Part shown: piece after piece, positions 16,961 to 18,905 of the stretch
Layout of the letters: each line of letters begins with the position of its first letter
Position numbering within the stretch: the first letter of the stretch is position 1
Source: a virus
Taxonomy: Duplodnaviria > Heunggongvirae > Uroviricota > Caudoviricetes
Length of the DNA stretch: 55,008 nt
IMG/VR virus record: IMGVR_UViG_2925891887_000003
Reading direction: 5' to 3' (one strand)
The notes under the pieces: generated by a model
Database searches by the model: none
Seen by the model: the letters and a program-made list of their open reading frames with translations, nothing else
What the model was told of the DNA's origin: nothing
Made by a program: the position numbers and the translations under genes

Positions 16961-17581
16961 TTATTCCATTAATTAAATCCGCACTGGATAGAAGGTACTA
17001 CCTCTCACAGAGTAGCAAAGTTCAACTGGCTATGCGGGATTAATCGGAATGCATGGTGGAATGAGTGCCGATACAAATCATCCTATATTCTAAGGAGTTT
17101 TAAGTTACTCAGCCTGCCAATTACTGGGGCATTTAATTTGTATGATCTGTATCAAAGCTGGGATATAAGTTAAGTGAAGTATATTAGGCACGAATTACCA
17201 GCGTCTGCTCTTGGCACATAGCAGACCAGAGACACTGGCGTAAAGCCATGGAGGATCGGTGGGAGGAGGTAAAAATCCTCTCATGCAAAAAATACGCAAA
17301 ATCGATAACAGTTGGAAATCATTCAATACTCGCACTATCGGAAGTTCACCAGCCAGTCGTAGCACGTTCTTGCATACGACGTGGCTACGGGTTTCGAGAC
17401 CGACCCGATCATCAAACGAAACATAAAATTAGCTCACATTATGAGGAAAGGTATCTTTTTGCGCTATGTAAATTCAAAGGGTTAGCCTCATTTTCCCGAT
17501 GGTTTTCTCAGCACTACTAGTTGTGAGCCCTTGCAATGTTCATTAATATACGTCTCACAAATAATTCACAGATATTGCAAA

Positions 17582-18355
17582 ATGGATATTACTGAGTTTC
17601 CTTCTGGAGTAATTGAACACCTTGGCTGGTATGTATACCGATTGATTGATCCTAGGGACGGAAGCACCTTCTATGTAGGGAAAGGCAAAGGTAACCGCGT
17701 ATTTGCCCATATGCGCGGTGAAGTGGCAGCGGCTGATGATGACGAGTTACTGAGCAACAAGCTAAAGCAAATCAGAGAAATAAGATTAGCGGGACTTGAA
17801 GTTATCCATGTCATCCATCGACATGGAATGACTGATGAAAAGACGGCGTACGAAGTTGAAGCAGCACTTATTGATGCCTACCCTGGGTTAACGAATATCA
17901 TGAATGGTGCTGGCAGCAATGAATTCGGCGCCGCGCATGTCAAAGAATTGATAGCAACATATCAACCCGAAACCATAACATTTCATCATAAAGCATTAAT
18001 GATTTCCGTTAACAGAAGTGCAAAGGATTCAGAGCTTTATGATGCGGTTCGATTTAGCTGGCGCATCAATGCCTCGCGCGCCAGTCAAGCAGAAGTCATT
18101 CTTGCCACTGTAAGGGGTATCGTTCGAGGGGTTTTTATTGCTGATAAATGGCTCAAATCAACACGTGAAAATTTCCCTACGATGAAATACTGGGACGAGG
18201 ATCCTGACTTTGAGGCAACACAAAGTTCTCGCTATGGTTTTGAAGGTCGAGAAGCCCCACCTGAAATAGCAAATCTTTATCTTGGGAAAAAAATACCAGA
18301 TGAATTAAGAAAAAAAGGAGCTATGTCCCCGGTCCGTTACTCACCTAATTTTTGA
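17582..18355 (+). CDS. GIY-YIG nuclease-domain protein with an uncharacterised C-terminal domain
   Basis: ORF 17531..18355 (TTG); ATG at 17582 preferred. N-terminal [28 protein letters not shown] fits the GIY-x10-YIG...R...H motif. AT-rich. Confidence 0.6.
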
Positions 18356-18905
18356 GTATTCAATTGATAAGATTAAACCGCAGCACGTTATTGCATACAA
18401 CGTGTCTGCGGTTTCAACTCCGCCGGCCCCCCCCAATCATGATTGGACAGCACTTGCAAAAAAAGAAATTAGTATTCTCAGCAGGACACCGGTCAGATAG
18501 TGCGGCAGATCAATGTCTGGTTAATATTGATGACCGCTGCCCGCTGATTCTATTGCCGAAACTGTGCGGGAAAAGATGTGGCAAGATATTGTTGGTAAAA
18601 AATTCTCAGTGACTTTATGCCAGCAAATCAGTTTGCCTGGCATCCAGTATCATGTGCGGTGGATAATGTCAAAAAACATGGGGAGTCGATTAAACAGGTA
18701 TAATCGTTAAAAACCTTCAAACTCCAGGCAAAACCCTATTTCATAGAACATGTACTTTCATCTGGTATACATGAACGAATTATGACTGCGTTAGTAAAAT
18801 TACCTTGGTTAAATTACAGGCAGAGATATATGTTCCAGTCCAGTGCTTTTTCGTTTACAATATTTATCTTTCATTATCACTTGACTTTATTAAAAGAGGT
18901 TCGTT

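Follow-up and report, generated by a model that had tools for sequence, protein, structure and literature searches.

The window, by which we mean the whole 55,008 nt stretch of DNA analysed here, holds a P4-like satellite followed by a few cargo genes and a thrW-integrated myovirus prophage, and the coordinates of these and of the smaller features discussed below are collected in Table 1. Over a query of positions 17000-18800 the window is 100% identical to E. coli PC-NDM34. The gene under study, identified below as CMoRE (PD-T4-3), lies in the accessory region of the prophage. To its right follow an O-acyltransferase gene and then the tail-fibre genes, with att-side accessory genes on the other side, and a stem-loop is found both before and after it. 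Related prophages carry the gene in the same relative position; they sit beside tRNA-Pro, in the thrW region at its paoD side and at the serU-type att of O157, where a partial tRNA-Ser gene is followed by CMoRE and then by pinE.

Table 1. Features of the window, with positions counted from its first letter.
Feature	Position	Strand	Remarks
P4-like satellite	1-11010		Drt3a/Drt3b adjoin its integrase
47-bp copy of the 3' part of tRNA-Thr	11173-11219		repeats 53564-53610
Three cargo genes	about 11.5-17 kb
Contractile-tail prophage	about 17.2-53.5 kb		intact tRNA-Thr(CGT) gene borders its integrase
Conserved non-coding element of the lambdoid accessory ('b') region	17211-17395	+	~185 nt; its 3' end is stem-loop copy 1
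Stem-loop copy 1 (upstream)	17357-17390	+	(T)CGTAG-CACGTT-loop-GACGTG-G-CTACG(G), 1-nt bulge
Upstream region travelling with CMoRE	17385-17581	+	98% identical in O157-type loci without hairpin 1
Putative remnant of a tRNA-Ser-type att core (GGTTTCGAGACCG)	17390-17402	+	joins the 3' arm of hairpin 1 without a gap
CMoRE / PD-T4-3 ORF	17582-18355	+	ATG start, 257 aa, WP_000355478; RefSeq uses the same ATG
Stem-loop copy 2 (downstream)	18375-18414	+	AAACCGCAG-CACGTT-loop-AACGTG-T-CTGCGGTTT, single bulged base; begins 20 nt past the stop codon
Intact tRNA-Thr(CGT) gene	53565-53640

The protein encoded between the two stem-loops matched Pfam family PF22945 (LEM-3-like GIY-YIG) over residues 28-110 with an E value of 2.4e-14, and PF01541 at a sub-threshold level in Pfam. 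Its GIYxY-YIG motif reads G15-W-Y17-V-Y19 ... Y31-V-G33, and the nuclease core claimed in an earlier note on this DNA is therefore borne out. The PADLOC model PDLC04031 (PD-T4-3) matched with an E value of 3.3e-140, placing residues 1-256 on model positions 1-255 of 256, and the match to PHROG 5356 spans the protein over its full length; a search of NCBIfam with the protein returned no family. Comparison with PDB 9U75, the CMoRE of E. coli O157:H7, gave a gapless alignment with 253 of 257 residues identical (E 3.7e-172), and 9U7U matched with an E value of 3.9e-150. The differences from 9U75 (window residue first) are E55D, A164V, Q168K and N198H, the first of these being a position at which the CMoRE of APEC O1 has E, as in the window protein, whereas 9U75 has D. 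All three tyrosines of the motif are aligned with those of 9U75, and the acidic loop D52-D53-D54-E55 takes the place of DDDD in 9U75 and of DDDE in 9U7U. Residues from about 120 to 257 align end to end with both crystallised proteins and contain three of the four substitutions relative to 9U75. On the strength of the full-length profile match, the identity to 9U75 and the presence of Y17, Y19, Y31 and the DDDE loop at the published positions, we identify the window gene from its sequence as CMoRE, an E. coli defence nuclease that has been characterised already.

PD-T4-3 was first recovered in an E. coli pangenome selection by Vassallo et al. 2022, whose main text names only a GIY-YIG nuclease (PMC9519451), and has been attributed to ECOR68 (PMC12923530). 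CMoRE is described as a single-gene type IV restriction enzyme that degrades DNA carrying 5hmC or glucosyl-5hmC and guards against T-even phages (PMC12923530). It consists of an N-terminal GIYxY-YIG nuclease with Y17, Y19 and Y31, an autoinhibitory loop of four consecutive acidic residues and a C-terminal domain responsible for modification sensing, which according to the authors has no homologues; the structures are PDB 9U75, 9U8D, 9U7U and 9U7Z (PMC12923530). Cleavage and protection against T-even phages were demonstrated for the O157 protein, which is 98% identical to the window protein, and the gene cloned with its native promoter confers defence (PMC12923530). Activity against Tevenvirinae was shown for a native clinical isolate (10.1101/2024.12.20.629700) and modification dependence for a homologue (PMC12366544). 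The C-terminal domain that the earlier note had noticed and called unknown is thus present but is the published 5hmC/5ghmC-sensing domain of CMoRE (PMC12923530), and its suggestion of a stand-alone defence nuclease was correct, the nuclease being one already known. The gene itself is no novelty: what it does, its structure and the phages it acts on have been published, and tools that annotate defence systems recognise CMoRE. Copies with 95-100% nucleotide identity occur in 837 of the 5,426 complete E. coli genomes searched. CMoRE has no constant partner gene, its neighbours varying by locus (acyltransferase, pinE, tRNA-Ser remnant, b-region element).

A repeat search delimited the direct repeat around the gene as two 36-nt copies at 17358-17393 and 18379-18414 that are 83% identical and lie 1021 nt apart. 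The upstream copy ends 188 nt before the ATG and the downstream copy starts 23 nt after the stop codon, so that the repeat pair, its palindrome and its distances from the GIY-YIG ORF had been read correctly before. The internal CACGT...ACGTG palindrome is in each copy part of a longer imperfect stem-loop, whose outer stem differs between the two by compensatory changes (CGTAG/CTACG in copy 1 and CGCAG/CTGCG in copy 2). Folded as RNA, copy 1 gave -21.6 kcal/mol (z -2.6) and copy 2 gave -20.6 kcal/mol (z -3.5), the minimum-energy fold of copy 1 being a shifted register, with only -13.0 kcal/mol for the family register alone. The 55-kb window contains exactly two occurrences of the 22-nt repeat core, GCACGTTNTTGCATACNACGTG, compared with 0.00 in dinucleotide shuffles. 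A chance similarity of the repeats, for which their short length alone would speak, was dropped with practically no probability left to it, given that shuffles yield no match where two are observed and that the family to which the two copies belong counts hundreds of hairpins. Rfam, at its gathering threshold, has no match at the CMoRE locus.

Scanning viral contigs for the hairpin core pattern yielded at least 120 loci holding at least 125 hairpins, and 98 of 125 hairpin copies among the matches listed for these contigs have no CMoRE in their locus. The downstream copy goes together with CMoRE: O157 (before pinE) and at least 16 viral-contig loci have a homologous hairpin past the stop codon of the gene. 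Most CMoRE loci, O157 for example, hold only this downstream copy, and the two-copy layout of the window represents a minority. The genes found just before or after a hairpin copy among the matches listed encode an EcoRII-like restriction enzyme, NleG, NEL-type effectors, a SAM-methyltransferase, a DUF2971/PDC-S31 protein, a 215-aa protein, a DinI-like protein and a diguanylate cyclase, and convergent DNA-invertase or tail-fibre-assembly genes also border such copies. In one contig (L061) a different cargo gene is bracketed by two hairpin copies. Many loci therefore have the repeat without the gene: the hairpin-bearing element was found in 192 phage records, lambda and HK97 included, and a 382-nt query (17200-17581) has matches in 3,176 of 5,426 E. 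coli genomes, in up to 7 places per genome, as against the 837 that have the gene. Most of these matches are limited to 17287-17395 and end in the hairpin. The hairpin family is generic at the cargo-gene borders of lambda-like prophages and is not specific to CMoRE.

Such a distribution, with the repeat at many loci that lack the gene, is what the earlier note itself had named as refuting its idea of a cassette, and it bears on the other reading offered there, a free-standing homing endonuclease-like cassette. On that reading the gene would be selfish and mobile, and the repeats would be its duplicated target or recognition site. The GIY-YIG fold itself, a weak match to PHROG 314 'homing endonuclease' (E 0.0022) and the occurrence of the gene in several prophage backgrounds would agree with such a cassette. 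However, the protein is 98% identical to a restriction enzyme whose modification dependence was shown biochemically, and a DNA-binding module of the NUMOD, IENR or HTH kind is absent from its Pfam matches. The repeats, at just 83% identity, are not a fresh duplication and mostly occur without the gene, most CMoRE loci have the 3' copy only, and gene-less alleles hold other cargo (as in contig L004) rather than an empty cleavable site. We reject homing, which we regard as highly improbable, because the protein is nearly identical to a characterised restriction enzyme, has no homing-type DNA-binding modules and is flanked by repeats that are generic and diverged.

To the left of the gene, the widespread part of the conserved b-region element is its last ~110 nt, at 17287-17395. 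Phage lambda has the element between ea31 and ea47 (NC_001416 24162-24265, 87.5% identity), with a homology that reaches leftward to about 17211 when read by eye, and in HK97 it begins 1 nt after the annotated sib retroregulator, before tfa. RefSeq places an 81-nt 'capsid protein' pseudo-fragment on the minus strand inside this element, at 17291-17371; this annotation is probably spurious. The full upstream piece including hairpin 1 was found in about 126 genomes, compared with the 837 that have the CMoRE gene. The upstream region of CMoRE in O157 adjoins 61 nt that match an annotated tRNA-Ser gene at 100% identity, and the window retains the last ~13 nt of this stretch with one T missing. We infer that this short piece, next to hairpin 1, is a relic of an att core, and the tRNA-like GGTTTCGAGACC tail at the repeat would be the same tRNA-Ser att remnant; ARAGORN found no tRNA or tmRNA at the repeats despite this tail. 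The CMoRE promoter presumably lies within the upstream region that travels with the gene. A consensus promoter scan at the locus found no promoter on the + strand, and a weak sigma-70-like candidate (TTGTGA at 17521-17526, a 17-nt spacer and TAATAT at 17544-17549), with 8 of 12 matches counted by eye, falls below the threshold of that scan.

To count covariation in the hairpin we used a script that allows a bulge of 0 or 1 nt, since a MAFFT alignment had put the 1-nt bulge out of register. The search pattern itself prescribed the inner stem and the loop, so that no independent evidence can be drawn from their conservation. The outer stem shows double changes in the 34 unique variants among the matches listed: one position is A-T in 24, G-C in 6 and G.T in 4, the next is C-G in 21, T-A in 7 and T.G in 3, and another is C-G in 31 and T-A in 2. 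Counted over all variants among these matches, 223 of 238 cells are paired, compared with 211 +/- 2.2 when partners are shuffled, and none of 2000 shuffles reached 223. Compensatory pairing is above that of the shuffles and the hairpin structure is therefore under selection.

What this structure does at the RNA level can be approached from its tails. Those after the two window stems read TTTCGAG and TTTCAAC, neither of which is a proper U-tract, and a consensus terminator scan of 16900-19000 found no terminator. At least 5 T within the 8 nt after the stem were counted in 33 of 123 family members among the matches listed, so termination is not a conserved property of the family; lambda's own hairpin copy has no T-tail. 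Some copies do fit the definition of an intrinsic terminator, for example L005, in which TTTTCTTT comes after a perfect stem of 14 bp (-24 kcal/mol, z -5.2). Copy 2 may plausibly be the 3'-end or terminator hairpin of the CMoRE transcript.

Alternatively the stem-loop could be mainly an element of RNA processing or stability, for instance a sib-like target of RNase III or the hairpin at the 3' end of an sRNA, that regulates its neighbours rather than terminating transcription. The place of the HK97 element directly after sib, the frequent absence of the T-tail and the G.U wobbles, which are favoured on the + strand (the innermost pair is T.G in 28 of 34 variants among the matches listed), point in this direction, as does a sub-threshold resemblance of both window copies, on the minus strand, to the 3'-terminal hairpin of the Rfam family CssrB. 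The 3'-terminal hairpin of the model of this Shigella sRNA (RF02799), AAACCGcaGCaCGuCuuAAGCaaGAaCGuGCugCG, is the reverse complement of the hairpin family, but the rest of the 180-nt RNA is absent at the window copies, only the terminal hairpin aligns and the scores of 19.8 and 19.7 bits are far under the gathering value of 76. Moreover no clear transcription unit on the + strand precedes copy 1 in the integrated prophage, and a literature search with the hairpin sequence found no experimental report on it. We therefore consider a mainly regulatory role unlikely and prefer a 3'-end hairpin for copy 2. The same search found no description of this stem-loop family at cargo joints in the searchable literature, and searches for CssrB and for a lambda ea31/ea47 terminator returned nothing relevant.

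At the DNA level the stem-loop is a mosaic joint. When 118 hairpin copies from viral contigs, among the matches listed, were compared over 206 nt per side, 13 upstream and 23 downstream flank classes occurred in 43 combinations. Across E. coli genomes the homology to the window either ends at 17383-17395 or starts at 17372-17388, around the 3' edge of hairpin 1, and in genomes without CMoRE it starts at 18383 and runs rightwards. In contig L004 another cargo gene is followed by just one hairpin, a hybrid with a left flank like that of copy 1 and a right flank like that of copy 2. Sixteen hairpins among the matches listed are chimeric, combining a CCGCA 5' arm with a TACGG 3' arm that leaves a C.A mismatch, and most of them join the left flank of CMoRE to the right flank of the pin side. 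These chimeric arms show crossovers inside the conserved core, and together with the flank mosaic and the variable breakpoints they agree with a homologous exchange over a short patch of conserved sequence. Recombinases of the Red/RecET type, which lambdoid phages carry, are able to use such short homologies, as has reportedly been described on more than one occasion.

It could be asked if the bulged stem-loop is instead a dedicated site of site-specific recombination, like an integron attC, that folds in single-stranded DNA and lets a phage or host recombinase swap cassettes. Several cargo genes of different kinds have a hairpin copy of their own at the end, both L061 and the window have cargo bracketed by two copies and the flanks combine in a reticulate manner, and among the matches listed half of the unique variants have a 1-nt bulge in a stem kept by compensatory change and a DNA invertase gene is often only 9-49 nt away. 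On the other hand the hairpin ends (e.g. CCAGCCAACCGCAG ... CTGCGGTTTC), read by eye, fit neither RYYYAAC nor GTTRRRY, and the integrases annotated in the window are tyrosine integrases of P4 and phage type, none of them an integron integrase. The mismatched chimeras and the breakpoints in the core, at the 3' edge of the hairpin or ~12 nt to the left favour homologous exchange over a fixed crossover, and the left joint of the window cassette falls outside the hairpin. An attC-like site is accordingly improbable in our estimation, and an integron attC proper was dropped, its motifs being absent. We are equally sceptical of the wider proposal that the stem-loop, which in many copies has a leader of ~110 nt, might be a dedicated cassette-exchange site or RNA regulatory module for swapping defence and virulence cargo. 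If it held, the stem-loop would be a phage counterpart of the integron attC, exchanging CMoRE, the EcoRII-like enzyme and the NleG/NEL effectors in lambdoid and related prophages. Two other candidates were also dropped: an IS200/IS605-type or REP/RAYT element, with no transposase nearby, and a Pin/gix inversion site, with the hairpin located at the 3' end of pin genes and, as we take it, bearing no resemblance to gix.

Taken together our results make it very probable that CMoRE is a prophage moron defending against T-even phages, that the repeats are generic stem-loops and that the cassette was swapped in by recombination. Gene identity, hairpin distribution, stem covariation and breakpoints were computed here, the enzymology is that of the literature, and we infer the role as terminator, the route of recombination and the place of the promoter. 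The C-terminal domain would recognise 5-hydroxymethyl- or glucosyl-hydroxymethyl-cytosine in the incoming DNA of a T-even phage, upon which the N-terminal GIYxY-YIG domain would cleave this modified DNA, and the acidic loop over the active site would spare the unmodified DNA of the host. In this way a cargo gene, or 'moron', of the thrW prophage would protect the lysogen against T4-like phages; protection by the allele of the window is predicted from the 98%-identical O157 protein.

The two repeats are diverged members of a stem-loop family common at the cargo borders of lambda-like phages, one belonging to the incoming cassette and the other to the resident DNA. The downstream hairpin is part of the CMoRE cassette and most likely marks the 3' end or terminator of its transcript, and the upstream hairpin is the one that closes the resident non-coding b-region element. 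The right joint could have been formed by homologous exchange inside or at the conserved hairpin, and at the left joint the 3' edge of the resident hairpin seems to have been fused to the remnant of an att core found ahead of CMoRE in prophages integrated at serU. The layout of the window may thus represent a CMoRE cassette from a serU-type prophage set beside a resident b-region hairpin.

The value of these results lies mainly in annotation, with little for discovery. The thrW prophage of this strain, with its intact CMoRE allele, should restrict T4-like phages, which is of relevance to phage therapy against this NDM-lineage E. coli. The stem-loop family, described here as a recurrent landmark of cargo junctions, is an only mildly new by-product that could serve to find hotspots of cargo and defence genes in lambda-like prophages.

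Compared with known systems, the window gene shares with CMoRE / PD-T4-3 its length, its two-domain architecture, tyrosines 17, 19 and 31, the acidic loop and carriage as a single gene on a prophage. It differs from the O157 locus in that the prophage is thrW-integrated, an acyltransferase gene takes the place of pinE after the gene and an extra hairpin copy stands before it. The moron as a concept and exchangeable effector loci have both reportedly been described. The locus resembles lambdoid moron or 'b-region' loci in consisting of a self-contained cargo gene between the tail-fibre genes and the att end, which brings along an upstream region of its own and ends in a hairpin, at a junction where other phages hold unrelated cargo (restriction enzyme, T3SS effectors, methyltransferase). 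Unlike in those loci, the tail of the window prophage is Mu/SfV-like and contractile, not a lambda tail. GmrSD and McrBC, modification-dependent restriction enzymes of type IV directed at T-even DNA, share with CMoRE the strategy of sensing hydroxymethyl- or glucosyl-cytosine and cutting, but their folds are unrelated and CMoRE combines the GIY-YIG nuclease and the sensor domain in one small protein. The GIY-YIG homing endonucleases I-TevI and the Seg proteins have the same catalytic fold as CMoRE, whereas CMoRE has no homing-type DNA-binding modules, lies neither in an intron nor between conserved essential phage genes and takes modified DNA rather than a specific long target site as its substrate.

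In many lambda-like prophages, the joints at which cargo genes have recombined are marked by a stem-loop family whose core is GCACGWTNYTGCATACNACGTG. Among the viral-contig matches listed its flanks fall into at least 13 × at least 23 classes, the outer stem covaries and chimeric arms are present. The cargo found at these joints includes an EcoRII-like restriction endonuclease, the effectors NleG and NEL, a SAM-methyltransferase and a DUF2971/PDC-S31 protein. At one of these loci (L061) two copies of the hairpin bracket the cargo, a second case of this arrangement besides that in the window. 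The cargo there encodes a protein of 334 aa that weakly matches ClpP-like SDH proteases, and a DinI-like gene precedes it.

Coordinates of the features (in the window unless another sequence is named)
Feature	Position	Strand	Remarks
Stem-loop family members	L010-L129; lambda NC_001416 24162-24265; HK97 NC_002167 20943-21041		L numbers, loci on viral contigs
Two-hairpin cargo	L061 1553-3177		copies 1603 nt apart
P4-like satellite	1-11010		primase-helicase, Icd-like, two psu-like, delta-like, integrase
C4 antisense RNA and isrK	3139-3379		Rfam matches within satellite
Drt3b/Drt3a	6627-9830		antiviral reverse transcriptases, slot between delta and int of satellite
Satellite integrase	9832-11010		
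Three cargo genes	11569-16960	-	between att repeat and b-region element
'Capsid protein' pseudogene fragment	17291-17371	-	81 nt, RefSeq annotation
Shifted helix of hairpin copy 1	17351-17386		AGCCAGTCGTAGCA / TGCATACGACGTGGCT, predicted fold
CssrB matches	17358-17409; 18379-18493	-	sub-threshold in Rfam, both window hairpins
KAP-family NTPase	41586-42917	+	between holin and Q antiterminator genes

The 3' part of tRNA-Thr(CGT) occurs as an exact 47-bp repeat (11173-11219 and 53564-53610), showing that the P4-like satellite and the prophage are tandem integrants at thrW. The three genes that follow the att repeat encode a hypothetical protein of 476 aa, a DUF2254 protein and a BCCT transporter, and their slot is filled differently in related prophages, for example by a 'lysogenic conversion protein' at locus L002. 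A PADLOC scan of two of them, the 476-aa hypothetical and the DUF2254 protein, gave no match.

The prophage carrying the nuclease gene CMoRE may possess a second defence moron, a KAP-family NTPase gene inserted opposite in orientation to those around it. Among the PADLOC models this NTPase matched PDC-S20, a candidate defence family, at E = 1.1e-176, with weak matches to PifA and QatA besides. Its coding sequence starts at 41585 in coordinates derived from the RefSeq record NZ_CP082120.1 and at 41586 in the window, a 1-nt offset that arises somewhere between 18355 and 41585.

Upstream of CMoRE, the RefSeq 'capsid protein' fragment overlies the conserved non-coding b-region element of lambda, of which the final ~100 nt alone persist in HK97, directly after sib, and the annotation is therefore probably spurious. 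For hairpin copy 1, at the end of this element, folding predictions favoured a shifted helix that draws on the conserved left flank: the minimum-energy fold reaches -21.6 kcal/mol and the pairing common to the family -13.0, a difference of 8.6 kcal/mol. The two C-to-T changes particular to the copy 1 variant are predicted to stabilise this shifted helix. Both window hairpins also gave Rfam matches, below threshold, to the Shigella sRNA CssrB (RF02799) at its 3'-terminal hairpin, and these matches suggest that the 3' end of CssrB belongs to the same hairpin family.
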